DNA from: a virus
Taxonomy: Duplodnaviria; Heunggongvirae; Uroviricota; Caudoviricetes
Strand: one strand, 5' to 3'
IMG/VR virus record: IMGVR_UViG_2671180405_000008
Length of the DNA: 36,457 bases
The notes below the pieces were generated by a model. The model saw only the letters and a program-made list of their open reading frames with translations, did no database searches and was not told the DNA's origin. The position numbers and the translations under genes are program-made. The number at the start of each line of letters is the position of its first letter. Position 1 is the first letter of the stretch. Positions 1 through 34,585 of this stretch are shown piece after piece.

Positions 1-66
1 GCCAATCAGCACGCTGAATCTCCCGTCCAAAAGCACAAATCATGCCATGCAGGCCAGAAACCGCCA

Positions 67-92
67 TTATCTAAAACCTCGGTTTACGAGAA
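67..92. repeat. Serine-invertase crossover site (gix/cix/hix-like 26-bp site), left end of invertible tail-fibre segment, inverted relative to the site at 2983-3008
   Basis: Sequence ttatctaaaacctcggtttacgagaa; its reverse complement ttctcgtaaaccgaggttttagataa matches the site at 2983-3008 at 22 of 26 positions and resembles the gix consensus from memory; an alternate tail-fibre reading frame opens immediately inside it. Confidence 0.6.
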
Positions 93-851
93 CTCGGCAC
101 AAGCGGGGAGAAAATACCGTTACTCAGTACAGCGAATACCTGGACTAATCGACAAACATTCAGCGGTGGCCTTTCTGGTGAACTATCCGGCAATGCTTCT
201 ACAGCTGCAAAATTAAAAACTGCCAGGAAAATAAGCAATGTGGCTTTTGATGGTTCCTCCGATATCACATTAAAAGCAAGTCATGTTGGTGCGTTTGCCT
301 TAGGGAAAACAGGAAGCACCGTTGCGAATGATAAAGCAGTTGGATGGAACTGGAGTAGCGGAGCCTATAACGCAACTATTAGTGGTGCATCAACGTTAAT
401 TATTCATTTTTATATGGGAGAAGGAAGTTGTCCTGCAGCTCAGTTTCGGATTAATTATAAAAATGGCGGTATTTTTTATCGTTCAGCCCGTGATGGTTAT
501 GGTTTTGAAGCCGACTGGTCCGAATTTTACACCACCAGAAAACCTTCAGCAGGAGATGTTGGTGCACTGCCGTTATCTGGTGGTCAACTGAATGGTGCAC
601 TGGGTATCGGAACATCCAGTGCTCTTGGCGGTAATTCGATTGTATTGGGTGATAATGACACGGGCTTTAAACAAAAAGGCGATGGTAATCTGGATGTTTA
701 TGCTAATAACGTCCATGTTATGCGCTTTGTCTCCGGAAGCATTCAAAGTAATAAAACCATAAATATTACGGGACGTGTTAATCCCTCGGATTACGGTAAC
801 TTTGATTCCCGCTATGTGAGAGATGTCAGACTTGGCACACGAGTTGTTTAG
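75..851 (+). CDS. Alternate tail-fibre C-terminal variable cassette (promoterless, silent orientation); reading frame continues through an in-frame TAG at 849-851 to a TAA at 999-1001
   Basis: Frame-3 translation from 75 reads NLGLRELGTS...NTWTNRQTFSGG...VAFDGSSDITLK...SRYVRDVRLGTRVV; the last 48 codons after the TAG (TMKKGVMYEKSGHVITGL...[17 protein letters not shown]) match the conserved P2 H-type C-terminus; no start codon, begins at the crossover site. Confidence 0.6.
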   Translation, partial: NLGLRELGTSGEKIPLLSTANTWTNRQTFSGGLSGELSGNASTAAKLKTARKISNVAFDGSSDITLKASHVGAFALGKTGSTVANDKAVGWNWSSGAYNATISGASTLIIHFYMGEGSCPAAQFRINYKNGGIFYRSARDGYGFEADWSEFYTTRKPSAGDVGALPLSGGQLNGALGIGTSSALGGNSIVLGDNDTGFKQKGDGNLDVYANNVHVMRFVSGSIQSNKTINITGRVNPSDYGNFDSRYVRDVRLGTRVV

Positions 852-1003
852 ACCATGAAGAAAGGCGTGATGTATGAAAAATCAGGCCATGTAATCACGG
901 GGCTTGGTATTATCGGTGAAGTCGATGGTGATGATCCGGCAGTATTCAGACCAATACAAAAGTTAATTAACGGAACATGGTATAACGTATCGCAGGTATA
1001 ATC

Positions 1004-1537
1004 ATGCAGCATTTAAAAAACATTGTCGCAGGTAATCCAAAAACCGTTGAACAATACCAGCTAACAAAGAATTTTGATGTTATCTGGTTATGGTCCGAAG
1101 ATGGAAAAAATTGGCATGAGGAATTAAAAAACTTTCAGGAGGATACAATAAAACTGGCTTACACAGTTGAGGGAATAATTATTGCTATAGACAAGGATGT
1201 ATCAGCAATTAATCCAGAAGGTTTAAGTGTCGTTGAGTTGCCTGATATTACAGCAAATCGCCGGGCTGATATTTCGGGCAACTGGATGTTCAAAGATGGT
1301 GCGGTGATAAAGCGAACTTATACCGAGGAAGAGCAAAGGCAACAAGCGGAAAATGAAAAGCAGAGCCTGCTGCAGCTCGTCAGGGATAAAACCCAGCTGT
1401 GGGACTCTCAGCTACAGCTGGGCATCATTTCCGATGAGAATAAACAAAAATTAACCGAGTGGATGCTCTATGCGCAGAAGGTTGAATCCACAGACACCTC
1501 CAGCCTGCCAGTAACGTTTCCCGAACAACCAGAATGA
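1004..1537 (+). CDS. Tail fibre assembly protein (Tfa, P2 G / Mu U-like), alternate-cassette copy
   Basis: 177 aa starting [14 protein letters not shown]; paralogous to the minus-strand Tfa at 1566-2093; sits directly after the tail-fibre cassette stop. Confidence 0.75.
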
Positions 1538-1541
1538 GAGA

Positions 1542-1568
1542 AGGCCCGCTATCGGGCCTTAATTTTTA
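1542..1568. terminator. Hairpin between convergent tfa genes, possible bidirectional rho-independent terminator
   Basis: aggcccgctatcgggcct stem-loop followed by taattttta, between the plus tfa stop (1537) and minus tfa stop (1566). Confidence 0.4.
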
Positions 1569-2093
1569 TTCAGGCTTTTGTGGCCATTCAGGATTTGCCG
1601 TATCCACACGGCTGACCAGAACACTGTAGCGTTCCCATGCTTCCAGTCGTGTGCGTTCCTCGTCCGTCGCCATATTCAGCCTGACAGCGCGTTCCAGCGG
1701 CTGGATGACTGATTCAGCTTCGGAAAGCAATGCGGCCTTTTGTGATTCGGCCTGTTGTTGCAGTTCCTGTTCTGTATATTCCCTCTTTACTACTTTACCA
1801 TCCAGAAACATCCATTTTCCGTTATTGTCTGCGTGACGATTTGCCGTAATATCAGGAACTTCAACTATGCTTAGCCCTTCAGGATTAATAGTTGAAACGT
1901 CTTTACTGACAGCAACGATGATGTTGTTCTCATCGTAAGCAATTTTTATGGTGTCTGGCTGAAAATTCTTTTGTTCCTCATACCAGTTTTTGCCATCTTC
2001 GCAAAAGAGCCATACCACGCCCGCTTTTTTAGTTAGCTGGTATTGTTCCGGTGTTTTCGGATTCCCGGCCTTAATATTTTTCAGGTGCATCAT
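1566..2093 (-). CDS. Tail fibre assembly protein (Tfa), expressed-orientation copy; start probably at the MMHLKN/MHLKN methionines (2093 or 2090) rather than 2129
   Basis: ORF translation [22 protein letters not shown]...; immediately downstream of the tail-fibre stop at 2095. Confidence 0.75.
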
Positions 2094-2094
2094 C

Positions 2095-4008
2095 TTAAAC
2101 ACTCCCCACGTTGTACCATATTCCCCCAATCAATTTCTGAATTGGCCTTCTGGCAACAGTGTCGACAATATCATCCGCATTGCTGTTAATTGCGGCTGTT
2201 AAAACATAACCTGACGCATCGCCAAAGCCGTAGTCGCGCCATACGTTTTTATATTCAATGCTGCCAAGACGAATATCCCGAACGACATGATTATGCAGCC
2301 ATGTGCTTAACCAGTTGTTTTCCCACACTGAACCATAAATATCGCCACTAGACGCAACTTGCGCACCACTTCCCAGCGCAAATCCCCCATCTGTTTTAAA
2401 AATGAAATCACCACCACCATCTGAACCGTTATTAATATGAACACCATCACCACCGTTATCTTTCCACAAAAACATACGAATTCTTCCGTCTTCGTTGGCG
2501 AATGTAATGTGGTGGCGGTAATTACTTTTTAATCTAAAATTGCTGCCATTAGATTCAATATCTTTATAAAGATGTAATCCTAACTCATCAATATGTCCGA
2601 TGCGCGAACCATTTGAATAGAAGCTAATAATACCATCTCCATCTTGCCTAAATCCGGTGTCGTTATCTCCCAGAACAATGGAGTTTTCACCCAGTGCGTT
2701 ATCAGTAGCTCCAATAGCTAGACCTCCTTTAATTTTGGCCCCGTGGCTGACAGATATAGCACCTGTTCTCAGATTTATAGCGAATGGCCTTAATGGGCCG
2801 ATATTACCGTTTTCGCCTTGTCCTTCAGCCGTCGGAATGAAATGAAGAAAATCTTCTGAACGACGGAAAATTAGACCGAAGGTATCATTGAAAATTCGCA
2901 GCGCATTCACCGTGCCAATTTTCAGTTCTCCGGTCATTTTATCGCCGGAACGCTGAACGGCGTTACCAGCCTTGTTTACCGTTTCCTGTAAACCGAGGTA
3001 TTCGATAACGGCGGCAACGGTCGATTTCGCAAGAATATCCCGCCCGACTTTTGTCAGGGTTGCCAGGCTGGCGACATCATTCCCCGTAAAATACGGAAAC
3101 CTGTCTGCCGCAGTAGCAAGCCCCGCCAGCGCCGTCAGAGTGGCATCTTTCGGTTGCTTACCCGCAAGCGCGTTAGTCATGGTGGTCGCAAAATTCGGGT
3201 CGTTGCCCAGCGCCGCCGCCAGCTCGTTCAGTGTGTTCAGTGCATCAGGCGAAGAGTCTACAAGTGCGGCAATCGCAGCCATAACGAAAGCCGTGCTTGC
3301 GATTTGGGTATTATTCGTTCCCTGTCGCGCAGTTGGTGTTGTTGGCGTTCCGGTCAGTGCCGGGCTGTTTAATGGGGCTTTCTTGTTCGTTTCATCCATT
3401 ACTGCCTTAACGGCTTTTGGTGTCGCTGCCAGCGTTTCAGACGTGCTGTTGGTGGCGTTGCTGAGCTGGACAAGGCCTTTTGCGGTCAGCGAGGCGTCCG
3501 GGTGACGTCGTGACTGTTCATGCTCTTTCAGTTTGTCATCCACGTAATTCACTGTGGCCATCACCATGGTGTTATCCACGGTAAGCGCCACAGTGGCAGT
3601 GCTGGATACGGTCAGAATGGTGCGAAATGTTTGTGCACGTCCGGATCCTTCGGCAACGGTTGGCTTGTAACTTTCGGCAGTATTGCCTACCGCGATCAAA
3701 TCGCCGTGCTCATCAAACACACCAATTTCCCGGATCCAGAATCCGCCCGTTTCAGGAGGAATAACCAGCTCCGCAATAATGTGGTTCTGATGTGTTGCGT
3801 CCAGGGTGACGCGATTAACGGTATGTCGCCACACCTCATGCACAAGACGGGTCTGCTTACTGTCTGGCGTGGGTAAAGTACCGCCGCCGTCACCCACGGC
3901 CATATGTGTCAGGCGGACAGGTTTCCCATCTGGCGCGGTTGCCTGCGCTAATTTTTTTGCACCCGTATCGGTGATAATGGTTTTAAATTTTCGTGTTGTG
4001 GTACTCAT
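2095..4008 (-). CDS. Tail fibre protein (P2 gpH-like), constant N-terminal part 3009-4008 fused to variable C-terminal cassette 2095-2982
   Basis: 637 aa; N-terminus [26 protein letters not shown]... and [16 protein letters not shown]...[21 protein letters not shown] match P2 H from memory; ends [17 protein letters not shown]. Confidence 0.85.
2983..3008. repeat. Serine-invertase crossover site inside the tail-fibre gene (boundary between constant and variable parts)
   Basis: ttcctgtaaaccgaggtattcgataa, gix-like; encodes VIEYLGLQE at the constant/variable boundary. Confidence 0.6.
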
Positions 4009-4010
4009 GC

Positions 4011-4574
4011 TTAATCGTCCGGATAAATGGTAATGACTTCACCGTCGTAAGTTGCTGCTGCCGCGAAAATATCTCCCTGAATCTCCTGAATGATATTCAG
4101 CCCTGTCATGTGGCGGCTGACCGGGCGGGCATCAGCAATCAACCGCTCCATTTCCAGATACATTTCCTCCGTCACGCCACTGTCCAGCGTGCCAACATCA
4201 ATCTTGAATGTTCCGGGTTCGCCGTTGAACTCCCACCACTCAGACACGCGAATGAGGTATCCCAGCGGCTCAATGGCCCGTCGCAGGGCGCTGATGGTTC
4301 CTTTGTGTCGGTGTATCAGCCATGCATCACGAATCACCTGTCGCTTTGTCTCTTCCGGCCAGTTGCGATCCCAGCGGTCAACGGAAAACGCCCAGGCGAG
4401 ATAAGGCAGCAGATGCACCGGGCAGGTGTCCGGCGACCACAGCGTGTTGAGGTCTGCCGGAATGTCTGTAATGCGTGTTCCGACGGCTTCGGCACAACGC
4501 ATGAAATTGCTGGCTGATGGTGGTAACAGTGAATTACTCATTACGCCCACCTTCGCTGATGGTGAATGACTCAC
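4011..4574 (-). CDS. Baseplate assembly protein I (P2 gpI-like); true start may be the internal MSNSLLPP methionine near 4541
   Basis: Translation with LLPYLAWAFSVDRWDRNWPE motif; position between J and H. Confidence 0.8.
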   Translation of the reverse strand: MSHSPSAKVGVMSNSLLPPSASNFMRCAEAVGTRITDIPADLNTLWSPDTCPVHLLPYLAWAFSVDRWDRNWPEETKRQVIRDAWLIHRHKGTISALRRAIEPLGYLIRVSEWWEFNGEPGTFKIDVGTLDSGVTEEMYLEMERLIADARPVSRHMTGLNIIQEIQGDIFAAAATYDGEVITIYPDD

Positions 4575-5430
4575 AGCGCGCCGCCTGTATGTCGCTGATG
4601 GCCATATTCTGTGTGGGTTCGATTATCTCCACGCGTTGCACACCGTGCACATGCAGTGCGGCAGCAATGGCGGACAACGCCACGTCCTGACCGATAAGCC
4701 CCTGCTCAGCCAGCCACTTCCTGAACGACGATTCAGCCGCAGCCAGAATAGGTTCGGATTCCGGACCGGGGTAAAAGTACAGTTTTGCATTCAGCCGCCA
4801 TGTCACGATTCTGGCACTCTGTACGGTCAGGCGGTCGGCCACCGGGCGGGTATCCTCTGCATTCAGAACGGCGCGAACGGTATTAAGCAACGCCTCCGTT
4901 GCTGTGCCGTCGCCCTCAGTGGACAGGATGGAAACCGTCACATTTGCCGGAGACGGACTGATGGCCCGCGCATCGCGCACCAGACCGCTGGCGCTGCGGG
5001 CAAAATACTCGTATGCGCCTGACGGGCCTGCAACACTCAGGCCGTCATACGCCCGCTGCGCCCGCAGTCTCAGCGAGGTGTCGTTCTCCATCACCACGTC
5101 GGTGGTATCCGTTGCCGGAGTGATAACCAGGCGCTTTGTGTTCATATTGCCCGCGAGGTTGTCCAGGTCTGTTCCGGCGCTGTGGCTCAACATGCAGGCG
5201 CGTGCGGCCTCATTGACCCGCTGGCGTAACAGCATTTCACGAAACGACATGGTTTGAGCGATAACGTTCAGGGGTTCCGATTCCAGTTCCAGTGCGGCGG
5301 AGACGACTTCACGCTGTTCGGCGGGATAAGCTGCAATCATCATGGCCTTTGTGTCAGCCAGAATTGCCTCAAAGTCAGGCTCCGCGATGATGGCGGGTTC
5401 CGGTAACTGGGAAAGGTCAACGGCAGGCAT
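4534..5430 (-). CDS. Baseplate assembly protein J (P2 gpJ-like)
   Basis: 298 aa, position between W and I in conserved P2 order. Confidence 0.8.
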   Translation of the reverse strand: MPAVDLSQLPEPAIIAEPDFEAILADTKAMMIAAYPAEQREVVSAALELESEPLNVIAQTMSFREMLLRQRVNEAARACMLSHSAGTDLDNLAGNMNTKRLVITPATDTTDVVMENDTSLRLRAQRAYDGLSVAGPSGAYEYFARSASGLVRDARAISPSPANVTVSILSTEGDGTATEALLNTVRAVLNAEDTRPVADRLTVQSARIVTWRLNAKLYFYPGPESEPILAAAESSFRKWLAEQGLIGQDVALSAIAAALHVHGVQRVEIIEPTQNMAISDIQAARCESFTISEGGRNE

Positions 5431-5433
5431 GAT

Positions 5434-5784
5434 TTACTCCCTCAGCGTGATGGTTAATTCAACATTCTGCATGGTCTGCATGACAGTGCCCGACAGCGTC
5501 ACCCCGGCGTGGCCTCCTGCCTTCCAGACAACGTCGATGGCGTTCAGGGCAATGCGTGGTTCCCATCGTGTCAGTGCAATCACGGTAGCACTCATGCATT
5601 GCAGACGCGTGGTGTTATTCATGGGTTCGTCAATCAAATCAGGCACAAGGCTGCCATATTCCCGTCGCATAACCCGGCTTGCCAGCGGGGTGGTCAGGAT
5701 GTCCCTGACTGACTGTTTCAGGTGCGCCATATCGTTCAGGTTTCCCGTCCCGTCCGGGTTCATTCCTGTGTAGCGGGTTGTCAC
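5434..5784 (-). CDS. Baseplate wedge protein W (P2 gpW / GPW-gp25 family)
   Basis: 116 aa, conserved position between V and J. Confidence 0.75.
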   Translation of the reverse strand: MTTRYTGMNPDGTGNLNDMAHLKQSVRDILTTPLASRVMRREYGSLVPDLIDEPMNNTTRLQCMSATVIALTRWEPRIALNAIDVVWKAGGHAGVTLSGTVMQTMQNVELTITLRE

Positions 5785-6362
5785 TGCGGGCCTCCTGTCG
5801 AATCGCTGCCACCTTTAACGCCACCGTGCTTATGCGTATGCACTGTGATGCCGTTTGAGGTGAAATCGCCGCCGCTGTGCGTGATATTGCCGCTCATCGT
5901 TCCCCCTTTTGTGACGTCAAGCGTCGCTGTTCTCAGAAGGTCTGTGCATTCCACGACAGGCGTGTTCAGTGTCACGCTGATGGATGCCTGCAAAGTGGCC
6001 GTTTTCATGCCGCTTGCGCTCAGTGCGCCTGCGTCCGCGTCGTAGCGGAACACCGCGCCGTCCGGCGCGCTGACCACGATTTCTTTCAGGCTTTTGCCGG
6101 GTGCCGGAATGGCATCACTCCACAGGCTGCCGATTATCATGGCGGTTTCCGGGTTGCCGCCGATGCAGGCAATTGCCACCTGTTCGCCTGGTGATGGCGG
6201 AAACCACACGTTGAAGTCTCCCGCGCGCGTGGTGTTCCAGCGCAGCCAGCCTGTTTCCAGTTCGCCGCTGCGAACGCGCACGCACCAGGATTCCTCATCA
6301 ACTTCAGAGATGATCCCGGTGCGGATGATATTGCTCAGCAGTCGCATGAGTTCTGCGCTCAT
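5781..6362 (-). CDS. Baseplate spike / assembly protein V (P2 gpV-like)
   Basis: 193 aa, conserved order S-V-W-J-I-H. Confidence 0.75.
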   Translation of the reverse strand: MSAELMRLLSNIIRTGIISEVDEESWCVRVRSGELETGWLRWNTTRAGDFNVWFPPSPGEQVAIACIGGNPETAMIIGSLWSDAIPAPGKSLKEIVVSAPDGAVFRYDADAGALSASGMKTATLQASISVTLNTPVVECTDLLRTATLDVTKGGTMSGNITHSGGDFTSNGITVHTHKHGGVKGGSDSTGGPQ

Positions 6363-6994
6363 CGTACAGCCTCCGCAATCCGGCCCAGCACCGTGTTATA
6401 AATCAGGCGCTCATCTGCCTGGCTGATACCCAGCAGCTCACGTACCGGGTAATCGGTGAAAATGCCCGGCGCAACCTGATCGCGCTCACCGAACTGATGA
6501 ACGCGTGCAATACGTGCGGCCACGCCGCTGTAACCCACCGTCACACCGGAAGCATCTGCACGGGCTTTCAGGTAGCGGGCGGTGCGCAGTTTTACGAACA
6601 TGGAGACGCGCCTGGTGCTGTCCTGGTTGATGCGCCGGGTGCGTATTTCCAGAAAACGGTCGATGTCATCCCGGTAAAACGTGCGGATATTGTTTTTATC
6701 CTCATCCCACCCGGTGATGGTTCGCCCGTATTTCCCCGTGTCGTGATGCCAGTTTTTCAGCGTGCGTGCTTCGTTATTCCAGATAAAGCGAATGCGCTCC
6801 TGTATCCGGGTTACGCGGCGTCTGCGTGGTGTCCATGCGGTCCCGTCCGGCGCTTTCTGTGACCGGATACGCGCCTGCTGGGCGCGGCGTAAATCCTGTG
6901 CCAGCTTTCTGGCGATGTTATTAATGGCCTGCTGATTCAGGCTGTCGCGGATAGCCTCAAAGGTTTCATCCACGCGGGTGAATGCCTTATCCAT
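6359..6994 (-). CDS. Putative tail completion / virion morphogenesis protein (gpS-position gene)
   Basis: 211 aa ORF between R (intact in the second copy) and V; assignment is by position, length differs from P2 S. Confidence 0.5.
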   Translation of the reverse strand: MDKAFTRVDETFEAIRDSLNQQAINNIARKLAQDLRRAQQARIRSQKAPDGTAWTPRRRRVTRIQERIRFIWNNEARTLKNWHHDTGKYGRTITGWDEDKNNIRTFYRDDIDRFLEIRTRRINQDSTRRVSMFVKLRTARYLKARADASGVTVGYSGVAARIARVHQFGERDQVAPGIFTDYPVRELLGISQADERLIYNTVLGRIAEAVR

Positions 6995-7068
6995 CGCTTT
7001 CCCCCCACGTCACATCCTGGAATACATGCGACCAGTCGCCTTCGGAAGAGGGCAGGCGGGGTTTTGGC

Positions 7069-8566
7069 TCAATCTTTATAAAGATGTAATCCTAACTCAT
7101 CAATATGTCCGATGCGCGAACCATTTGAATAGAAGCTAATAATACCATCTCCATCTTGCCTAAATCCGGTGTCGTTATCTCCCAGAACAATGGAGTTTTC
7201 ACCCAGTGCGTTATCAGTAGCTCCAATAGCTAGACCTCCTTTAATTTTGGCCCCGTGGCTGACAGATATAGCACCTGTTCTCAGATTTATAGCGAATGGC
7301 CTTAATGGGCCGATATTACCGTTTTCGCCTTGTCCTTCAGCCGTCGGAATGAAATGAAGAAAATCTTCTGAACGACGGAAAATTAGACCGAAGGTATCAT
7401 TGAAAATTCGCAGCGCATTCACCGTGCCAATTTTCAGTTCTCCGGTCATTTTATCGCCGGAACGCTGAACGGCGTTACCAGCCTTGTTTACCGTTTCCTG
7501 TAAACCGAGGTATTCGATAACGGCAGCAACGGTCGATTTCGCAAGAATATCCCGCCCGACTTTTGTCAGGGTTGCCAGGCTGGCGACATCATTCCCCGTA
7601 AAATACGGAAACCTGTCTGCCGCAGTAGTAAGTCCGGCCAGCGCCGTCAGGGTGGCATCTTTCGGTTGCTTACCCGCAAGCGCGTTAGTCATGGTGGTCG
7701 CAAAATTCGGGTCGTTGCCCAGCGCCGCAGCCAGCTCGTTCAGCGTGTTCAGTGCATCAGGTGACGAATCTACAAGGGCGGCAATCGCAGCCATAACGAA
7801 AGCCGTGCTTGCGATTTGGGTATTATTCGTTCCCTGTCGCGCAGTTGGTGTTGTTGGCGTTCCGGTCAGTGCAGGACTATTTAAGGGCGCTTTCTTGTTC
7901 GTTTCACCCATTACCGCCTTAACCGCTTTTGGCGTTGCCGCCAGTGACTCGGAAGTGCTGTTGGTCGCACTGCTGAGCTGTACTATCCCCTTTTTCGTCG
8001 TGCTCGCATCCTCAAGCGCCACGGCGGATGCAATATCCTCTGCCCGTTTTGCTGCTGTCTCGGCGCGCGTTGCCGCGGATTCAGCAGCAACTTTGCTCTG
8101 AGATGCAGCCGTCGCACTGCCTGCCGCCTCTGATGCTTTCGTTGTTGCTGTCGTGGCACTACCTTTCGCTGCTGACGCTTGTCTGGTCGCCTCATCTTTT
8201 GAAGCAGACGCAGATGATGCCGATGACGCCGCTGAACTGGCTGACGATGCGGCTGCTGCCTTAGAGGAAGCAGCATTGTCTGCTGAAGTCTTTGCATTTG
8301 TTTCAGAGGTTTTTGCTGCAGAAGCAGACCTCGCTGCTGCAGTGGCTTGCTCAGTGGCTTTGCCAGCCTTCGTTGTGGCTGTTGAAGCGGATGATGCGGC
8401 GCTTTCTGCCGATTTTCCGGCGGCGGTGGCACTGGCTGAGGCCTGCCCGGCACTTGTTGACGCGGCACTGGCAGATAATGCAGCCGCTGTTTTTGAACCT
8501 GCCGCAGCTGAGGCGCTCTGTCCCGCTGCTGTTTCAGAAGACTTAGCGTTCGTCTCGGACGTTTTA
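7069..8566 (-). pseudogene. Chimeric tail-fibre fragment: Ala/Ser/Thr-rich Stf-like repeats (8566-7980) fused to a diverged H-like constant region and a variable cassette identical to 2560-2982; N-terminus truncated by the IS, C-terminus truncated at the 7070/7072 junction
   Basis: ORF 7069-8598 translation; first 11 codons (MVVSAIASTPH) lie inside the IS terminal repeat; ends HLYKD exactly where homology to copy 1 stops. Confidence 0.6.
7494..7519. repeat. Third copy of the invertase crossover site, same orientation as 2983-3008
   Basis: Identical 26-mer ttcctgtaaaccgaggtattcgataa. Confidence 0.55.
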
Positions 8567-8609
8567 TGAGGTGTACTGGCAATAGCGGACACTACCATTT
8601 GTTCTTTTT

Positions 8610-9428
8610 TTAAGCAGCCATCTGATGATATTTTTCCCTGAAGGCTGCCGGGGAGATATTCCCCAGACGAGAGTGACGACGCTGACGATTGTAGAAAATC
8701 TCAATGTATTCCCGTATTACTGAGATGGCTTCATCCCGGTTATTAAAACGATAGTGGCTCAGGCTCTCATTTTTCAGCGTTCCCCAGAAGCTTTCCATCG
8801 GAGCGTTGTCGTAACAGTTACCTTTACGCGACATTGATGTTTTCAGACCAGACTGCTCCTGTATGACCCGGTAATCGTATGCGCAGTACTGTGAACCTCG
8901 ATCAGAGTGGTGGATTAGCCCGGCAGGTGGGCGCTGGCTCCTGAGCGCCATAAACAGGGCTTTACCTGTCAGCTCTTTTGTCATGCGCTCTCCCATGGCG
9001 TAGCCGACAATTTCGCACGTATAAACATCTTTGATGCCAGCGAGGTACAACCATCCCTCCTGTGTGGCAACATACGTCAGGTCCGCCACCCAGACCTGAT
9101 TTGGTGCTGTAGGAGCGAACGTCTGGTTCAGCAGATTTGGCGCAACTGGCAGATTGTGGTTCGAGTTCGTAGTCGCTCTGAACTTGCGTTTCTGCTTACA
9201 GCGTAGCCTTAGCTCCTTACGAAGACGTGCCAGTCGGTCACGACCAACGATGATGCCATTCTCTGCCAGCTCCGTCTGGAGCCGCCGGGTTCCATATGTT
9301 TCGCGAGTGCGGATATGTGCCACCTTAATCTCCAGTTTTAGCCGCTCATCACTTTGTTTTCTGTCTGAGGGTTCATGCTGTACCCAGTTGTAATAACCGC
9401 TCCTGGATACACCAAATACCTGACACAT
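8610..9428 (-). CDS. IS3-family transposase OrfB (DDE integrase domain)
   Basis: 272 aa; HSDRGSQY and NCYDNAPMESFWGTLK motifs typical of IS3-family OrfB. Confidence 0.85.
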   Translation of the reverse strand: MCQVFGVSRSGYYNWVQHEPSDRKQSDERLKLEIKVAHIRTRETYGTRRLQTELAENGIIVGRDRLARLRKELRLRCKQKRKFRATTNSNHNLPVAPNLLNQTFAPTAPNQVWVADLTYVATQEGWLYLAGIKDVYTCEIVGYAMGERMTKELTGKALFMALRSQRPPAGLIHHSDRGSQYCAYDYRVIQEQSGLKTSMSRKGNCYDNAPMESFWGTLKNESLSHYRFNNRDEAISVIREYIEIFYNRQRRHSRLGNISPAAFREKYHQMAA

Positions 9429-9463
9429 CGCTTCAATGGGAAATTGTTGTCGCCATTGTTCGA

Positions 9464-9766
9464 TTAACGCGTATTTTTCAGCGACTCCTGTGCAAAATAC
9501 GCTGTTGCTTTTTTTAATATATCTCGCTCAAGGCGAGCTTCATTTAACGCCTTACGCAGTTGCAGAATTTCAGATTCCAGTTCAGCCACCGTGCGGGAAC
9601 CAGGAGTACCGAGCCCTTTTCTGGCGGCGGTAACCCATTGTCCTAAAGTGCCTTCAGGAAGAGATAATCGGGAAGCGCCTTCACTGATCGAAAGTTGATT
9701 TTCAAGAACCGTTCTGACAGCTTCGGCTTTGAACTCTTTAGAGTAACGTTGGGTTTTTCTGCTCAT
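9464..9766 (-). CDS. IS3-family transposase OrfA (HTH, leucine-zipper part)
   Basis: 100 aa MSRKTQRYSKEFKAEAVRTV..., recalled as IS600 OrfA. Confidence 0.85.
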   Translation of the reverse strand: MSRKTQRYSKEFKAEAVRTVLENQLSISEGASRLSLPEGTLGQWVTAARKGLGTPGSRTVAELESEILQLRKALNEARLERDILKKATAYFAQESLKNTR

Positions 9767-9827
9767 TATTAGCTCCTTCTGATGCCATTCTATTTCAGGA
9801 AGGAGTGTCCGTTAAACTCAGGCTACC

Positions 9828-11537
9828 TCACTCTGACCAGTCAGCTTCAAAGCCATAACCATCACGCGCTGAACGATAAAAAATACCGCCGTTCCTGTAA
9901 TTCACGCGGAACTGTACAGCAGGGCAGCTCCCCGTATTCATATTGAAGTGGAGGATTAATGTCGATGCGCCACCAATGTTTGCGTTATAGACCCCGCTAT
10001 TCCAGTTCCAGCCAACAGCTTTATCATTTCCGACAGTGCTTCCTGTTTGCCCTAAAGCAAATGCAGGTTGTTGATTTTTCGTGTTGTAGTCTCGTCGCCA
10101 GCCAGGAGCGTAAGCATCACCATGATTAATATAAGTGAATTGAGCGTTAGTAATTCCGCCACCGCTGGACGTGCTCGGCGTGGTAACGCGTATGGTCATT
10201 GCGCCGCGAGTGCCAATAACTTCCACCACAGCACCTGCAAGACAAATATTTCCGCAACCTGTATCTGTAATGACCTTATTATTTGCATAAGCCCATGAGC
10301 CTTTGCACATCCAGTAAGGATGGTTAAATGCTCCCTGACTCTCCAGCCACGAAATAAATTGCGCGGTTGTCCAGACCTGACTATCGCCACCAATATTCAG
10401 CCATGAGCTATATGCGCGGCAGGCACCAATATTTTTGGTGAAGGTATCTTTCCCCGGAATATCTGCGCCGTTCTGGTTTTTCTGTAATGCGCCAGAAGCC
10501 TGATTTACCGTTTCCTGTAAACCGAGGTATTCGATAACGGCAGCAACGGTCGATTTCGCAAGAATATCCCGCCCGACTTTTGTCAGGGTTGCCAGGCTGG
10601 CGACATCATTCCCCGTAAAATACGGAAACCTGTCTGCCGCAGTAGCAAGCCCCGCCAGCGCCGTCAGAGTGGCATCTTTCGGTTGCTTACCCGCAAGCGC
10701 GTTAGTCATGGTGGTCGCAAAATTCGGGTCGTTGCCCAGCGCCGCCGCCAGCTCGTTCAGTGTGTTCAGTGCATCAGGCGAAGAGTCTACAAGTGCGGCA
10801 ATCGCAGCCATAACGAAAGCCGTGCTTGCGATTTGGGTATTATTCGTTCCCTGTCGCGCAGTTGGTGTTGTTGGCGTTCCGGTCAGTGCCGGGCTGTTTA
10901 ATGGGGCTTTCTTGTTCGTTTCATCCATTACTGCCTTAACGGCTTTTGGTGTCGCTGCCAGCGTTTCAGACGTGCTGTTGGTGGCGTTGCTGAGCTGGAC
11001 AAGGCCTTTTGCGGTCAGCGAGGCGTCCGGGTGACGTCGTGACTGTTCATGCTCTTTCAGTTTGTCATCCACGTAATTCACTGTGGCCATCACCATGGTG
11101 TTATCCACGGTAAGCGCCACAGTGGCAGTGCTGGATACGGTCAGAATGGTGCGAAATGTTTGTGCACGTCCGGATCCTTCGGCAACGGTTGGCTTGTAAC
11201 TTTCGGCAGTATTGCCTACCGCGATCAAATCGCCGTGCTCATCAAACACACCAATTTCCCGGATCCAGAATCCGCCCGTTTCAGGAGGAATAACCAGCTC
11301 CGCAATAATGTGGTTCTGATGTGTTGCGTCCAGGGTGACGCGATTAACGGTATGTCGCCACACCTCATGCACAAGACGGGTCTGCTTACTGTCTGGCGTG
11401 GGTAAAGTACCGCCGCCGTCACCCACGGCCATATGTGTCAGGCGGACAGGTTTCCCATCTGGCGCGGTTGCCTGCGCTAATTTTTTTGCACCCGTATCGG
11501 TGATAATGGTTTTAAATTTTCGTGTTGTGGTACTCAT
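9828..11537 (-). CDS. Tail fibre protein H, second copy, with a different variable C-terminal cassette that is cut by the IS insertion (stop codon formed at the IS boundary)
   Basis: 569 aa; identical to copy 1 up to LGLQETVN then diverges; C-terminal ...GGIFYRSARDGYGFEADWSE matches the silent cassette at 75-851 up to the IS joint. Confidence 0.75.
   Translation of the reverse strand: MSTTTRKFKTIITDTGAKKLAQATAPDGKPVRLTHMAVGDGGGTLPTPDSKQTRLVHEVWRHTVNRVTLDATHQNHIIAELVIPPETGGFWIREIGVFDEHGDLIAVGNTAESYKPTVAEGSGRAQTFRTILTVSSTATVALTVDNTMVMATVNYVDDKLKEHEQSRRHPDASLTAKGLVQLSNATNSTSETLAATPKAVKAVMDETNKKAPLNSPALTGTPTTPTARQGTNNTQIASTAFVMAAIAALVDSSPDALNTLNELAAALGNDPNFATTMTNALAGKQPKDATLTALAGLATAADRFPYFTGNDVASLATLTKVGRDILAKSTVAAVIEYLGLQETVNQASGALQKNQNGADIPGKDTFTKNIGACRAYSSWLNIGGDSQVWTTAQFISWLESQGAFNHPYWMCKGSWAYANNKVITDTGCGNICLAGAVVEVIGTRGAMTIRVTTPSTSSGGGITNAQFTYINHGDAYAPGWRRDYNTKNQQPAFALGQTGSTVGNDKAVGWNWNSGVYNANIGGASTLILHFNMNTGSCPAVQFRVNYRNGGIFYRSARDGYGFEADWSE
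10511..10536. repeat. Fourth copy of the invertase crossover site, same orientation as 2983-3008; coincides with the left edge of the second 4.1 kb repeat
   Basis: Identical 26-mer; homology between the two blocks starts here. Confidence 0.55.
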
Positions 11538-11539
11538 GC

Positions 11540-12103
11540 TTAATCGTCCGGATAAATGGTAATGACTTCACCGTCGTAAGTTGCTGCTGCCGCGAAAATA
11601 TCTCCCTGAATCTCCTGAATGATATTCAGCCCTGTCATGTGGCGGCTGACCGGGCGGGCATCAGCAATCAACCGCTCCATTTCCAGATACATTTCCTCCG
11701 TCACGCCACTGTCCAGCGTGCCAACATCAATCTTGAATGTTCCGGGTTCGCCGTTGAACTCCCACCACTCAGACACGCGAATGAGGTATCCCAGCGGCTC
11801 AATGGCCCGTCGCAGGGCGCTGATGGTTCCTTTGTGTCGGTGTATCAGCCATGCATCACGAATCACCTGTCGCTTTGTCTCTTCCGGCCAGTTGCGATCC
11901 CAGCGGTCAACGGAAAACGCCCAGGCGAGATAAGGCAGCAGATGCACCGGGCAGGTGTCCGGCGACCACAGCGTGTTGAGGTCTGCCGGAATGTCTGTAA
12001 TGCGTGTTCCGACGGCTTCGGCACAACGCATGAAATTGCTGGCTGATGGTGGTAACAGTGAATTACTCATTACGCCCACCTTCGCTGATGGTGAATGACT
12101 CAC
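11540..12103 (-). CDS. Baseplate assembly protein I, second copy
   Basis: Protein identical to 4011-4574. Confidence 0.8.
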   Translation of the reverse strand: MSHSPSAKVGVMSNSLLPPSASNFMRCAEAVGTRITDIPADLNTLWSPDTCPVHLLPYLAWAFSVDRWDRNWPEETKRQVIRDAWLIHRHKGTISALRRAIEPLGYLIRVSEWWEFNGEPGTFKIDVGTLDSGVTEEMYLEMERLIADARPVSRHMTGLNIIQEIQGDIFAAAATYDGEVITIYPDD

Positions 12104-12959
12104 AGCGCGCCGCCTGTATGTCGCTGATGGCCATATTCTGTGTGGGTTCGATTATCTCCACGCGTTGCACACCGTGCACATGCAGTGCGGCAGCAATGGC
12201 GGACAACGCCACGTCCTGACCGATAAGCCCCTGCTCAGCCAGCCACTTCCTGAACGACGATTCAGCCGCAGCCAGAATAGGTTCGGATTCCGGACCGGGG
12301 TAAAAGTACAGTTTTGCATTCAGCCGCCATGTCACGATTCTGGCACTCTGTACGGTCAGGCGGTCGGCCACCGGGCGGGTATCCTCTGCATTCAGAACGG
12401 CGCGAACGGTATTAAGCAACGCCTCCGTTGCTGTGCCGTCGCCCTCAGTGGACAGGATGGAAACCGTCACATTTGCCGGAGACGGACTGATGGCCCGCGC
12501 ATCGCGCACCAGACCGCTGGCGCTGCGGGCAAAATACTCGTATGCGCCTGACGGGCCTGCAACACTCAGGCCGTCATACGCCCGCTGCGCCCGCAGTCTC
12601 AGCGAGGTGTCGTTCTCCATCACCACGTCGGTGGTATCCGTTGCCGGAGTGATAACCAGGCGCTTTGTGTTCATATTGCCCGCGAGGTTGTCCAGGTCTG
12701 TTCCGGCGCTGTGGCTCAACATGCAGGCGCGTGCGGCCTCATTGACCCGCTGGCGTAACAGCATTTCACGAAACGACATGGTTTGAGCGATAACGTTCAG
12801 GGGTTCCGATTCCAGTTCCAGTGCGGCGGAGACGACTTCACGCTGTTCGGCGGGATAAGCTGCAATCATCATGGCCTTTGTGTCAGCCAGAATTGCCTCA
12901 AAGTCAGGCTCCGCGATGATGGCGGGTTCCGGTAACTGGGAAAGGTCAACGGCAGGCAT
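12063..12959 (-). CDS. Baseplate assembly protein J, second copy
   Basis: Protein identical to 4534-5430. Confidence 0.8.
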   Translation of the reverse strand: MPAVDLSQLPEPAIIAEPDFEAILADTKAMMIAAYPAEQREVVSAALELESEPLNVIAQTMSFREMLLRQRVNEAARACMLSHSAGTDLDNLAGNMNTKRLVITPATDTTDVVMENDTSLRLRAQRAYDGLSVAGPSGAYEYFARSASGLVRDARAISPSPANVTVSILSTEGDGTATEALLNTVRAVLNAEDTRPVADRLTVQSARIVTWRLNAKLYFYPGPESEPILAAAESSFRKWLAEQGLIGQDVALSAIAAALHVHGVQRVEIIEPTQNMAISDIQAARCESFTISEGGRNE

Positions 12960-12962
12960 GAT

Positions 12963-13313
12963 TTACTCCCTCAGCGTGATGGTTAATTCAACATTCTGCA
13001 TGGTCTGCATGACAGTGCCCGACAGCGTCACCCCGGCGTGGCCTCCTGCCTTCCAGACAACGTCGATGGCGTTCAGGGCAATGCGTGGTTCCCATCGTGT
13101 CAGTGCAATCACGGTAGCACTCATGCATTGCAGACGCGTGGTGTTATTCATGGGTTCGTCAATCAAATCAGGCACAAGGCTGCCATATTCCCGTCGCATA
13201 ACCCGGCTTGCCAGCGGGGTGGTCAGGATGTCCCTGACTGACTGTTTCAGGTGCGCCATATCGTTCAGGTTTCCCGTCCCGTCCGGGTTCATTCCTGTGT
13301 AGCGGGTTGTCAC
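12963..13313 (-). CDS. Baseplate wedge protein W, second copy
   Basis: Protein identical to 5434-5784. Confidence 0.75.
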   Translation of the reverse strand: MTTRYTGMNPDGTGNLNDMAHLKQSVRDILTTPLASRVMRREYGSLVPDLIDEPMNNTTRLQCMSATVIALTRWEPRIALNAIDVVWKAGGHAGVTLSGTVMQTMQNVELTITLRE

Positions 13314-13891
13314 TGCGGGCCTCCTGTCGAATCGCTGCCACCTTTAACGCCACCGTGCTTATGCGTATGCACTGTGATGCCGTTTGAGGTGAAATCGCCG
13401 CCGCTGTGCGTGATATTGCCGCTCATCGTTCCCCCTTTTGTGACGTCAAGCGTCGCTGTTCTCAGAAGGTCTGTGCATTCCACGACAGGCGTGTTCAGTG
13501 TCACGCTGATGGATGCCTGCAAAGTGGCCGTTTTCATGCCGCTTGCGCTCAGTGCGCCTGCGTCCGCGTCGTAGCGGAACACCGCGCCGTCCGGCGCGCT
13601 GACCACGATTTCTTTCAGGCTTTTGCCGGGTGCCGGAATGGCATCACTCCACAGGCTGCCGATTATCATGGCGGTTTCCGGGTTGCCGCCGATGCAGGCA
13701 ATTGCCACCTGTTCGCCTGGTGATGGCGGAAACCACACGTTGAAGTCTCCCGCGCGCGTGGTGTTCCAGCGCAGCCAGCCTGTTTCCAGTTCGCCGCTGC
13801 GAACGCGCACGCACCAGGATTCCTCATCAACTTCAGAGATGATCCCGGTGCGGATGATATTGCTCAGCAGTCGCATGAGTTCTGCGCTCAT
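13310..13891 (-). CDS. Baseplate spike protein V, second copy
   Basis: Protein identical to 5781-6362. Confidence 0.75.
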   Translation of the reverse strand: MSAELMRLLSNIIRTGIISEVDEESWCVRVRSGELETGWLRWNTTRAGDFNVWFPPSPGEQVAIACIGGNPETAMIIGSLWSDAIPAPGKSLKEIVVSAPDGAVFRYDADAGALSASGMKTATLQASISVTLNTPVVECTDLLRTATLDVTKGGTMSGNITHSGGDFTSNGITVHTHKHGGVKGGSDSTGGPQ

Positions 13892-14523
13892 CGTACAGCC
13901 TCCGCAATCCGGCCCAGCACCGTGTTATAAATCAGGCGCTCATCTGCCTGGCTGATACCCAGCAGCTCACGTACCGGGTAATCGGTGAAAATGCCCGGCG
14001 CAACCTGATCGCGCTCACCGAACTGATGAACGCGTGCAATACGTGCGGCCACGCCGCTGTAACCCACCGTCACACCGGAAGCATCTGCACGGGCTTTCAG
14101 GTAGCGGGCGGTGCGCAGTTTTACGAACATGGAGACGCGCCTGGTGCTGTCCTGGTTGATGCGCCGGGTGCGTATTTCCAGAAAACGGTCGATGTCATCC
14201 CGGTAAAACGTGCGGATATTGTTTTTATCCTCATCCCACCCGGTGATGGTTCGCCCGTATTTCCCCGTGTCGTGATGCCAGTTTTTCAGCGTGCGTGCTT
14301 CGTTATTCCAGATAAAGCGAATGCGCTCCTGTATCCGGGTTACGCGGCGTCTGCGTGGTGTCCATGCGGTCCCGTCCGGCGCTTTCTGTGACCGGATACG
14401 CGCCTGCTGGGCGCGGCGTAAATCCTGTGCCAGCTTTCTGGCGATGTTATTAATGGCCTGCTGATTCAGGCTGTCGCGGATAGCCTCAAAGGTTTCATCC
14501 ACGCGGGTGAATGCCTTATCCAT
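13888..14523 (-). CDS. Putative tail completion / virion morphogenesis protein (gpS-position), second copy
   Basis: Protein identical to 6359-6994. Confidence 0.5.
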   Translation of the reverse strand: MDKAFTRVDETFEAIRDSLNQQAINNIARKLAQDLRRAQQARIRSQKAPDGTAWTPRRRRVTRIQERIRFIWNNEARTLKNWHHDTGKYGRTITGWDEDKNNIRTFYRDDIDRFLEIRTRRINQDSTRRVSMFVKLRTARYLKARADASGVTVGYSGVAARIARVHQFGERDQVAPGIFTDYPVRELLGISQADERLIYNTVLGRIAEAVR

Positions 14524-14983
14524 CGCTTTCCCCCCACGTCACATCCTGGAATACATGCGACCAGTCGCCTTCGGAAGAGGGCAGGCGGGGTTTTGGCTCC
14601 GGCAGGTGTTCTGCCTGCGGTGTGCCCTGACTGCTGCGCGTGATGCGAACGCGTTCCCGCAGGGGGAGCGTAAACAGGAGATCGGCGCTGTCATCGTCAT
14701 TGATAACGGCGGAAAATTTGATGTCCTGATTACGCTCCGGATTGAGCAACAACTGTGGCTGATTTTCGGATAACCACGCCAGCAGCGGCAGCGTGAGGTC
14801 GTCCAGCTCTCCGGCGTAATCCATGACAAACATCACTATCTGATAGCGGTAAACAAACGATGGGGTTTCTCCGGTCGTTTCAATGTTGCCGCTCTCCACG
14901 AAAATGGTGAATTTTTCCGGGTTGGCATGACACCACCGGCATGAACGGGTCATGGCTTCACGCAGGGAATCAGTTTTCAGCAT
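14516..14983 (-). CDS. Tail completion protein R (P2 gpR-like)
   Basis: 155 aa MLKTDSLREAMT...; position between lysis genes and S; only its last ~80 bp are present in the first repeat copy (6987-7070). Confidence 0.65.
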   Translation of the reverse strand: MLKTDSLREAMTRSCRWCHANPEKFTIFVESGNIETTGETPSFVYRYQIVMFVMDYAGELDDLTLPLLAWLSENQPQLLLNPERNQDIKFSAVINDDDSADLLFTLPLRERVRITRSSQGTPQAEHLPEPKPRLPSSEGDWSHVFQDVTWGESDG

Positions 14984-15613: not shown

Positions 15614-16069
15614 TCACGAAGTCAGTCTGTTGCACATGTCAGGCCAGTTGTGCGCCTGTGCATGTTTCCAGATAGTGGTGCGGTGGTAGTTACGGTTCTT
15701 ATCCCTGAACCACATAAGATTTCTGCATCCAAGATTAAAGGCGGCATCTGTCATTGCCTCAAACGCGGACTGTGGCATGGCGTTGCCGCTGAAGTTCTGA
15801 TTTATGCAGTTTTCTGCATGTTGCATATCATTAACCCAGCGCCCGGCGACTTCCGTTTCGGTGTACAGACGATTTTCCACATGCCCGGTCGAGCCGCACC
15901 CCACGGTCATTACCCCGGCAATATCCCGGTAAGGCGTTGCGCGACAGTCCTCCCATGTGGCAATGCGGATTTGCGCTTCCGGGCTGGTCCGGAGTTTGTG
16001 AGGGGCAATGGAGAACCCCAGCGCCACAATGGCGGCTACGGCGTAACGTTTAACGGGCAGCTTTATCAT
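15614..16069 (-). CDS. Endolysin, T4-lysozyme-like (GH24), probable signal-arrest-release (SAR) type
   Basis: E-x8-D-x5-T catalytic spacing in ATWEDCRATPYRDIAGVMTVGCGST; weakly hydrophobic Ala/Gly-rich N-terminus AVAAIVALGFSIA. Confidence 0.7.
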   Translation of the reverse strand: MIKLPVKRYAVAAIVALGFSIAPHKLRTSPEAQIRIATWEDCRATPYRDIAGVMTVGCGSTGHVENRLYTETEVAGRWVNDMQHAENCINQNFSGNAMPQSAFEAMTDAAFNLGCRNLMWFRDKNRNYHRTTIWKHAQAHNWPDMCNRLTS

Positions 16070-24677: not shown

Positions 24678-25637
24678 TTACTCCTTGTCCATTGCGTACA
24701 GCCCATTAACCAGAGCAAACTGTGGCACCCCGTCCGCGATGAAAGTCGCATTAACTCCGCAGGCTTCGCGGATAGCGGGTGCCACAATCTCCGCCCCTCC
24801 ACCGACAACCATCACCCGCCCGTAACCCGAAAAACCCGCCAGCGCGCGGATCACGCGTTGTTTCAGTGTTTCTTCCTTTTCACGAATAACCGCCATCAGG
24901 CTGGCGTAATGCGCGTCATTGTGGATGTGCTGGCGCAGCCAGGCTTCATCATGGCGATGTTCGATAATGGTATTGGCGATGTGGTGACTGGTGCGCATAC
25001 CGTTAGTGGCCATCACCGACAGTACGGCATCGGCCATCAGAGAAACGCCTACGTGTGGATCGCAAAACACCTGGCTGATACCTGCCAGTTGCCCCTGAAC
25101 CTTTGCCACATCCAGCGTGGTTCCGCCCAAATCCACAATCAGCAGGGATTCAAACGGACTCATGTCAGCCAGTGCCTTAAAGCCAGCCGGAATGGATTCA
25201 GGCATAACCCGCACGTTACGGATAGTGAATGCTTCGCCGTTCTGGTACTCCACCGGGCGCATAACGTTCGCTTTTTTGCGGTTGATGTTGGCCATGTCCG
25301 GCTGTGCGTTTGTGTCGAAATACTCGCTCAGTGGCAGGGTGACAACCACATCCACCTCCTGTGGCGTGATGCCTGATTTGACCAGCGCGTGATGAATGGC
25401 AATGACATTTACATCGCTGTACTGGTATTGCGTGTCGGTTGTCTGGACAAAGCGATCGCTGACCGGATCAAAACCATAGCGCACGCCATCAAGCATGTAG
25501 TTCGCGGGCTGCATGCCACCGAACGGCGCAGACCATTCCGACTTGAAGCTGTTCGGGCTGATGGCGTTGCGGCGTTCGCCGTTCTCAGTCCATGCCAGCT
25601 TGATGTTGGTGGAGCCGTCGTCGATACAAATTTTCAT
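24678..25637 (-). CDS. ParM/StbA-like actin-family segregation ATPase
   Basis: N-terminus MKICIDDGSTNIKLAW, phosphate-2 motif VDLGGTTLDV, adenosine motif VVGGGAEIV; close to R1 ParM. Confidence 0.8.
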   Translation of the reverse strand: MKICIDDGSTNIKLAWTENGERRNAISPNSFKSEWSAPFGGMQPANYMLDGVRYGFDPVSDRFVQTTDTQYQYSDVNVIAIHHALVKSGITPQEVDVVVTLPLSEYFDTNAQPDMANINRKKANVMRPVEYQNGEAFTIRNVRVMPESIPAGFKALADMSPFESLLIVDLGGTTLDVAKVQGQLAGISQVFCDPHVGVSLMADAVLSVMATNGMRTSHHIANTIIEHRHDEAWLRQHIHNDAHYASLMAVIREKEETLKQRVIRALAGFSGYGRVMVVGGGAEIVAPAIREACGVNATFIADGVPQFALVNGLYAMDKE

Positions 25638-30970: not shown

Positions 30971-31282
30971 ATGTCAATAGAGATATCAAAGAAGCTAAAA
31001 GCAATTCGAGAATCTGAGGGGCTTAGTCAGGCAAAGTTCGCGGATTCAATAGGTATTGCGGTTGGTACGGTTAAGCAATACGAGACTGGTATTCGAGGTG
31101 TGGGAACGGAGGTTTTACTGAAAATCACAATGCACCCGGAATTTAAAAAATACACTACGTGGTTGATGAGTAACGAAACAAATGAGGCTGCTGGGCAGAT
31201 CAGTCCTTCTCTCTCCCCTGATGGGCCAGAAAACACATCGTCTTCTCAAAAATCCCGCAAGACTGGCACACAGCCCGGCTAA
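30971..31282 (+). CDS. Immunity repressor C (P2 C-like); ORF track start at 30869 is probably too far upstream
   Basis: MSIEISKKLKAIRESEGLSQAKFADSIG...MHPEFKKYTTWLMSNETNEAAGQISPSLS resembles P2 C from memory. Confidence 0.75.
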   Translation: MSIEISKKLKAIRESEGLSQAKFADSIGIAVGTVKQYETGIRGVGTEVLLKITMHPEFKKYTTWLMSNETNEAAGQISPSLSPDGPENTSSSQKSRKTGTQPG

Positions 31283-31331
31283 TCATGGAACGCTGGGGGC
31301 ATGGTGGTCTTGTAACGCTGGGGCTTCACGA

Positions 31332-32309: not shown

Positions 32310-32311
32310 CT

Positions 32312-32812
32312 ATGGAAATAAAAAAACCTACAAAAAAAGAGTTATATGACTATTTACTATCGAAATATATAGAAGATAAATGCAAAGAAGAAGCTGATGA
32401 AATCAATAAGAAGTCGATGAGTCGTGTCAAAAAACATAAAGAGCGGCTGATGGAGATTACGCCAGAAATCTTCTTCCGTTTCTTGTCTGAGAAGGGGGTC
32501 TCCAGTGTCTGCCCTTCATGTGGATCGTCGCGATTATCTGTTCCAGAAAGTATGGATCTTTGCTGGGATAAAAATAAGAAACCAGAAAATTTTAACAATC
32601 TACCCCTGGAGGAACAGAGTGAGTTAATTAAAGAGAACATAAAGCATTATGTATCTTATGCTTTTTTGGGTGATGTTAAGAGCATACCTGATATGCGCAA
32701 AACTTATTACACGCTGCATTGCCTGAATTGTGGTTACCTGAGCCTTTATCGTACGTCTGCGGTGCTGAAGTGGTTGGAGAAAGACAAAGCGCAGGATGGT
32801 GATAATGGGTAA
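32312..32812 (+). CDS. Cargo gene 1: zinc-ribbon-containing protein of unknown function
   Basis: 166 aa; CPSCG and CLNCG motifs; strongly AT-rich; GGAGGA Shine-Dalgarno 8 bp upstream; start 3 bp after the int stop. Confidence 0.5.
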   Translation: MEIKKPTKKELYDYLLSKYIEDKCKEEADEINKKSMSRVKKHKERLMEITPEIFFRFLSEKGVSSVCPSCGSSRLSVPESMDLCWDKNKKPENFNNLPLEEQSELIKENIKHYVSYAFLGDVKSIPDMRKTYYTLHCLNCGYLSLYRTSAVLKWLEKDKAQDGDNG

Positions 32813-33350: not shown

Positions 33351-33459
33351 TGATCCACAAATTGACCACATCTCTGTTATTTGTTGTGGTTGGCTGTGTT
33401 TTTGTGTGTCTGTAAGTCTTTGATAATTACCTAACTTATTGATTTTTGTTTGTGTTTAT

Positions 33460-33482
33460 GGCCGCTCTGCGGCCTTTTTTCT
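33460..33482 (+). terminator. Rho-independent terminator
   Basis: ggccgctctgcggcc stem-loop followed by tttttt. Confidence 0.5.
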
Positions 33483-33542
33483 TTTCACTGTCGAAGAGTC
33501 ACCGTAAAATCAACGCCATGACACTTCAGCAGAACGGATACC

Positions 33543-34523: not shown

Positions 34524-34585
34524 CCGCAAAAAGACGGTCTATGATTAAAAGCTAAGATTTTTACTGACCACACCCAGGAGAAACG

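Follow-up and report, generated by a model that had tools for sequence, protein, structure and literature searches.

The window analysed here, the whole stretch of 36,457 nucleotides, is the complete draft contig CXBQ01000042.1 of assembly GCA_001250835.1, and the 637-aa fibre protein that it encodes bears the name of Shigella sonnei in the databases. In its leftmost 4 kb, the window is organised like an invertible tail-fibre segment of the phage Mu G-segment type (Table 1). Two inverted crossover sites of about 26 bp that follow the gix/cix/pix consensus enclose two opposed sets, each consisting of a variable fibre C-terminus and a tail-fibre assembly (tfa) gene, namely, cassette A with tfaA on the plus strand and tfaB with cassette B on the minus strand. 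Cassette A, the alternative to the variable end that is joined to the fibre gene in the window, is interrupted by an in-frame amber codon.

Table 1. Features of the invertible tail-fibre segment at the left end of the window.
Feature	Position	Strand	Evidence or remarks
Start of the Gin/Pin-type serine invertase gene (GTG CTG ATT GGC, VLIG); the contig end cuts off the rest	1..12	-	Identical to the start of Mu gin
gix-type 26-bp crossover site, invertase side: TTATCTAAAACCTCGGTTTACGAGAA	67..92	.	Inverted repeat with 2983-3008; matches Mu gix TTATCCAAAACCTCGGTTTACAGGAA
Cassette A, alternative tail-fibre C-terminal variable region of the L-413C/P2 H type	75..848 (to the amber; 258 codons open from the crossover site); full 75-1001	+	Pfam gp37_C and gp37_trimer; 93% nucleotide identity to L-413C gpH
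Amber codon TAG	849..851	+	CAG (Gln) plus one C-to-T transition at 849; nearest homologues and near-isogenic L033 have CAG
Post-amber sense codons (n = 49), conserved fibre C-terminus	852..998, plus TAA 999-1001	+	Aligns to Mu S residues 425-502 of PDB 5YVQ
48-aa ORF from ATG 855	855..1001	+	Inside the post-amber stretch
tfaA, tail-fibre assembly (chaperone) gene paired with cassette A, intact, 177 aa	1004..1537	+	Pfam Caudo_TAP, E 4.8e-34
tfaB, tail-fibre assembly gene paired with cassette B, intact, 175 aa	1566..2093	-	Pfam Caudo_TAP, E 7.9e-37
Cassette B	2095-2982	-	Variable end of the expressed fibre gene in the window
Expressed fibre gene, 637 aa: P2-type H N-terminus plus cassette B, joined at the crossover site	2095..4008	-	Pfam and ORF list
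gix-type 26-bp crossover site inside the fibre gene; reverse complement TTATCGAATACCTCGGTTTACAGGAA	2983..3008	.	Inverted repeat with 67-92; inversion end points in closed genomes fall at both sites

This organisation closely resembles that of the G segment of Mu, the C segment of P1 and the P segment of e14, with their invertases Gin, Cin and Pin. As in these systems, the two inverted 26-bp sites are close to Mu gix, one of them lies inside the fibre gene such that a constant N-terminus can acquire one or the other variable C-terminus, both variable ends have their own Tfa gene downstream, with the two sets facing each other, and both orientations are found in nature. As in Mu, some 55 nt separate the distal site from the start of the invertase gene, whose product begins with VLIG like that of gin. 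Unlike in the known segments, one of the cassettes carries a premature amber codon and the adjoining invertase is reduced, in closed S. sonnei genomes, to a stump of 60 aa. Also, in contrast to the Mu or P2 fibre, the constant part of the fibre in the closed S. sonnei genomes is that of a lambdoid side-tail fibre (Stf). Cassette A itself is 93% identical in DNA to the 3′ end of the H gene of Yersinia phage L-413C and shares with both L-413C H and P2 H the stretch ...FDSRYVRDVRLGTRVVQ...GHVITGLGI.GEVDGDD..., with a gpG-type chaperone gene next to it, but the H genes of these two phages are uninterrupted and lie outside any invertible segment.

The orientation of the segment was surveyed at 20 loci that contain cassette A, 19 of which have TAG and one (L033) CAG. 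In 15 of the 20, cassette A lies beside the invertase flank, that is, in the silent position; this is the arrangement of the amber cassette in the window, L004, L005, L007, L009-L014, L017, L018 and L021-L023. In the remaining five (L006, L008, L015, L016 and L019), the amber cassette is joined in frame to the fibre shaft, in the orientation for expression. The description of the cassette as silent in the sequence-only reading thus applies to the window and to most loci but not to these five. L012 and L019 differ by an exact inversion between the crossover sites, and so do L014 and L015, both of which are located on the same 4.96-Mb record, UGZB01000001.1. The two copies of the locus on this record lie about 15 kb and 10 kb from its ends, with flanks that are 99.95–100% identical and segments in opposed orientations, and we read them as the overlapping ends of one circular assembly. 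If this is the case, both states are present in one culture and inversion is ongoing despite the 60-aa invertase stump.

A functional serine invertase adjoining the segment was not found: in the closed S. sonnei genomes and in Escherichia coli NCTC86, the adjoining gene encodes the 60-aa stump or is annotated as incomplete. In Mu, the Fis-dependent recombinational enhancer is located in the 5′ part of gin, and the window holds 12 nt of the invertase gene. Given that the adjoining invertase is only a 60-aa stump, flipping is presumably driven by a trans-acting invertase encoded elsewhere, and a candidate is a full-length, 195-aa Gin-like protein that is encoded elsewhere in some S. sonnei draft contigs.

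Translation of positions 75-1003 of the window on the plus strand yields a single frame with one internal stop, the TAG that had been noticed from the sequence, around which the frame reads ...DVRLGTRVV*TMKKGVMYEKSGHVITGL..., with the natural TAA at its end. The count of 48 codons given for the part beyond the TAG in that reading has to be corrected to 49 (852-998), 48 being the length of the ORF that starts at ATG 855. The claim that these codons retain the conserved C-terminus is borne out by alignments with P2 H, L-413C H, the NCTC86 homologue and Mu S. Alignment to intact homologues, which had been proposed as a check, reveals the CAG-to-TAG change: CAG lies opposite the TAG of the window in all three of the DNA sequences aligned, those of E. 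coli NCTC86, E. coli OZ040035 and L-413C gpH, with hardly any other differences around the codon, and the 150 nt downstream of the TAG are identical in the window and NCTC86. The closest comparison comes from the IMG/VR contig L033, which is identical to window 75-1540 in 1465 of 1466 positions, the sole difference being C instead of T at 849; L032 has CAG at the amber position as well. With CAG in L033, NCTC86, OZ040035 and L-413C, the amber codon is accounted for by a single C-to-T transition in a glutamine codon, as had been proposed, and the cassette shows what is expected of a nonsense pseudogene, a sense codon in near-identical orthologues and a frame that is otherwise kept. The ancestral context of the mutated base, GTTCAGACC, is not CCWGG, so that a Dcm hot spot, at which deamination of 5-methylcytosine would generate the amber codon, was rejected.

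The residue at this position is glutamine in 41 of the 77 database homologues that cover the site, and Y, K, N, H, G, T, D, R or a gap in the others; these homologues are mostly fragments of no more than 221 aa, which suffices for a tally at one position but not for a family-wide profile. In P2 H (NC_001895), the aligned residue is glutamine (GTRVVQLM), in agreement with the sequence-only reading, but the codon is CAA and not the CAG that had been named. Mu S has threonine at this site. Given 41 of 77 and the threonine of Mu S, the glutamine is conserved within the P2/L-413C subfamily but not across the family. None of the 77 homologues terminates at the amber position, contrary to the possibility, considered in advance, that homologues end there naturally, and all the full-length ones extend to the conserved ...RP.QK.ING.WYNV..V end.

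The TAG allele is not confined to a single draft assembly. Fifteen loci from independent assemblies share it, with 100% identity to the window over 1466 bp; several of these loci lie on chromosome records of megabase scale, among them that of S. sonnei 53G (HE616528.1). The 48-aa ORF that follows the TAG was found in 2201 assembly blocks, 26 of which include contigs longer than 1 Mb, and both the 203-aa and the 48-aa products bear S. sonnei names in database entries, including Q3Z104 of strain Ss046; the two ORFs resulting from the mutation have thus been public in S. sonnei annotations since that strain. The intact CAG allele, encoding 253 aa, was detected in 47 blocks, in the same lambdoid context, and the sources name this protein S. 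sonnei as well. Both alleles thus occur in S. sonnei or its closest relatives, and the derived TAG is by far the commoner, being carried by most of the S. sonnei isolates sequenced and sampled. No TAG allele turned up when the GTDB species representatives were scanned for the exact pattern, a result that is uninformative on rarity and is expected if, as we assume, Shigella is merged there into E. coli and the representative genome is one without the allele. Among E. coli complete genomes, no match to the cassette exceeded 98.9% identity, so that the window does not stem from that collection; exact matches of its proteins assign it to S. sonnei.

Joining the amber cassette to the fibre gene shortens the product by its last 50 residues, the glutamine and the 49 that follow. 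Inversion of the window in silico, in the P2-type H context, yields a fibre of 594 aa instead of 644 aa, and in the flipped S. sonnei genomes, with the lambdoid context, the encoded product has 875 aa, ends at the TAG and occurs on 72 contigs, compared to 925 aa for the intact equivalent. The prediction that inversion leads to a truncated fibre is therefore supported at the level of the encoded proteins. The lost part includes a C-terminal motif that is common to P2 H, Mu S and S′ and the lambdoid Stf proteins; homology continues through this motif and includes a solved relative, with a match to Mu S (PDB 5YVQ/9KI1) at E 3.6e-17 over the last 75 residues and the C-terminal 78 residues of the solved Mu S fibre aligning to the region. 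Tfa chaperones of this family are described, in a secondary account (PMC9608196), as binding the distal fibre and driving its trimerisation. Because the 50 lost residues are present in all full-length homologues and Tfa binds the distal fibre, loss of function is likely, and the truncated fibre would be expected to be unable to fold, trimerise or bind its Tfa chaperone.

The element that carries the segment is not the one suggested by the window. In the window, the cassette is linked to a P2-like prophage, but all the closed or megabase-scale S. sonnei records examined place it in a decayed lambdoid prophage adjoining trpA. In this remnant, J is followed in order by Lom, Stf (918 aa, ending in cassette B), tfaB, tfaA, the ORFs of 48 and 203 aa, the 60-aa resolvase stump and a methyltransferase. 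A frameshift divides the tail-tip gene J into parts of 547 and 513 aa; it is shared by L041, which has CAG, and L016, which has TAG, and the J regions of the two align without gaps and with 1 mismatch in 2551 bp. J is split in the lambdoid remnant of L012 as well. The 60-aa invertase stump is likewise present in both CAG and TAG strains. Because the J and invertase defects are shared with strains that have the CAG codon, they predate the amber mutation, and the prophage was already dead or defective when this mutation arose. Many TAG strains have an additional lesion, an insertion sequence (IS) in cassette B.

The window is identical to the trpA-side locus of 53G from position 1 to 3012, with the first mismatch at 3013, beyond which the window follows the P2-type H gene, whereas 53G continues as the sequence found at 7524-8565 of the window. 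The resulting 637-aa fusion of P2-type H and cassette B was detected in 4 draft S. sonnei contigs alone, none of the megabase-scale contigs encoding it. The contig contains a 4.1-kb direct repeat (2968-7070 and 10497-14599) in which the N-terminal part of P2-type H and the I, J, W and V genes are duplicated. The two copies differ only at 2973, 2974 and 3013, being identical from 3014 to 7070, and copy 1 ends in a non-homologous junction with a cassette-B fragment at 7070/7071. The repeat probably arose as an artefact when the draft was scaffolded or its gaps were closed, and the linkage of the amber cassette to P2-type H in the window is probably a scaffolding product of the shared gix-flank repeat. 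At 3013, the first position beyond the gix-site flank shared with 53G, H copy 1 has G, whereas H copy 2, the Stf fragment (at 7525) and 53G all have A. The invertase-side flank likewise carries G (C61 on the plus strand), and the G at 3013 may be due to a glitch in the consensus or to past exchange at the H-side gix site, which it adjoins.

Several other features of the contig bear mention. Midway in the P2-like late operon, window 7072-8566 is a fragment of a lambdoid side-tail-fibre gene that comprises part of cassette B, an Ala/Ser-rich shaft and, near 7499-7524, a gix site; over 1494 bp, this fragment has 3 mismatches to the stf locus of S. sonnei 53G. It abuts, at 8566, an IS3-family element of 1264 bp (8567-9830; orfA 100 aa, orfB 272 aa), which we take to be IS600-like and which splits the variable cassette of the second H copy at 9830/9831. 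The related draft L039 joins a different sequence to this element, so that adjacency across it is unreliable. The right end of the window (31182-36428) holds a prophage integrase gene (31182-32309) and, beyond it, host genes whose products belong to the FecCD, glutathione peroxidase, ABC ATPase and NlpC/P60 families and which, named by Pfam family and order, appear to be btuC, btuE, btuD and a mepH-like gene; the integrase together with btuC, btuE and btuD at this end indicates that the P2-like prophage sits beside btuC rather than trpA. The P2-type lysozyme gene on the minus strand (15614-16069) encodes 151 aa in the window and in L039 but 182 aa in L020 and L022, and the shorter call may be another truncating lesion of the P2-like prophage. 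The early region of this prophage contains, also on the minus strand, a ParM/StbA-type actin-like segregation gene (24678-25637), an unusual cargo for the P2 type.

Taken at face value, the window would tell a different story on ownership, namely, that in a few strains the P2-like prophage at btuC and the dead lambdoid prophage at trpA were recombined by an invertase at their gix sites, so that the junction is real. We consider this improbable. If it were true, the P2-type H gene would own the lambdoid segment, and a possibly inducible phage would alternate between a working and an amber-truncated fibre; the cassette would then belong to a possibly live phage, the argument from a dead prophage would be weaker for such strains, and only then would a host range dependent on the supE suppressor be a live question.

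In our view, the amber codon is very probably a recent, lineage-specific CAG-to-TAG change in one cassette of the invertible fibre segment of an already non-functional S. sonnei prophage, and reflects neutral decay rather than a conditional switch. In the proposed course of events, the nonsense mutation hit one of two alternative receptor-binding cassettes in the Gin/Pin-type invertible segment of S. sonnei when the prophage was no longer functional, and would then have spread with the clonal expansion of the species; whenever the segment flips so as to join the amber cassette to the fibre gene, a truncated fibre would be made. We infer that the amber codon is neutral; with only one substitution in 1.5 kb, the downstream codons carry no signal on selection.

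The most serious competitor, which we nevertheless regard as unlikely, is that inactivation was selected, the loss of a fibre variant that is, for instance, costly or immunogenic having favoured S. sonnei such that TAG came to dominate by selection, not drift. Because the segment still flips, the cassette would be periodically expressed and thus exposed, and the excess of TAG over CAG (2201 vs 47 blocks) could reflect selection for inactivation. However, S. sonnei is a clonal pathogen of which one expanding lineage has been heavily sampled, so that allele counts track clone size, and the sampling of one such clone explains the excess equally well; moreover, cassette B has been separately destroyed by the IS in many strains, as predicted by unselected decay. 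The conditional cassette envisaged in the sequence-only reading, where the amber codon switches the fibre off in ordinary hosts and host range follows the suppressor genotype, has very little to recommend it. A supE host would indeed restore the ancestral protein, given that the inserted glutamine is the residue encoded by CAG in the homologues, and the 49 downstream codons and the cognate tfaA are intact. Intact downstream codons, however, are expected of a change so recent that it is the only difference in 1466 bp, and because the frameshift in J and the truncation of the invertase predate the amber mutation, there is no phage host range to tune. Furthermore, ARAGORN detected no tRNA genes in the window, the host gene btuC on the same contig uses TAG as its normal stop and, to our knowledge, amber suppressors are not normal among natural enterobacterial isolates.

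The absence of a suppressor tRNA among the ARAGORN predictions for the window speaks also against recoding, that is, the reading of TAG as glutamine (as in genetic code 15) known from some gut phages, a possibility that we deem negligible: the TAG does occupy a glutamine position, but it is the only in-frame TAG in the whole contig, near-isogenic strains have CAG there, and the other called genes are open and end in TAA or TGA, with TAG ending the host btuC. The signature of a recoded phage, many in-frame TAGs in essential genes combined with a phage-encoded suppressor tRNA, is lacking in this contig. Hardly more credible is a sequencing or assembly error at 849, even in a draft contig that has other suspicious features, in view of the 15 independent loci with TAG at 100% identity, several of them megabase-scale, and the 2201 blocks with the 48-aa ORF. 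It is similarly implausible, if slightly less so, that the gene has been split into two working parts, with translation restarting at ATG 855 to produce a 48-aa peptide that complements the truncated fibre in trans. The spacing of 3 nt between the stop and this ATG fits termination-reinitiation, and the 48-aa ORF is intact, but the ATG is an ancestral internal methionine codon (VVQTMKKG in the intact homologues), no convincing Shine-Dalgarno sequence precedes it, none of the homologues has a two-gene organisation and the prophage context is defective.

Neutral decay, the explanation that we favour, makes the amber cassette an ordinary prophage pseudogene. Like other Shigella prophage pseudogenes, it has a single nonsense mutation in a non-essential prophage gene, amid a frameshifted J, a truncated invertase and IS1- and IS3-family insertions, and nothing substantive sets it apart from them, the one twist being that this pseudogene resides in a cassette still flipping between the silent and the expressed position. 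Its biological weight is accordingly small: gene decay is well known in this pathogen, and the amber codon adds a further inactivating point mutation to one of its cryptic prophages. The sharing of gix sites between prophages can give rise to draft contigs that look chimeric, and whenever a silent cassette is ascribed to a particular prophage from draft data, comparison with closed genomes should come before interpretation. The C/T difference at 849 provides a clean marker that separates, among the S. sonnei assemblies, a minority ancestral group with CAG from the majority derived group with TAG.
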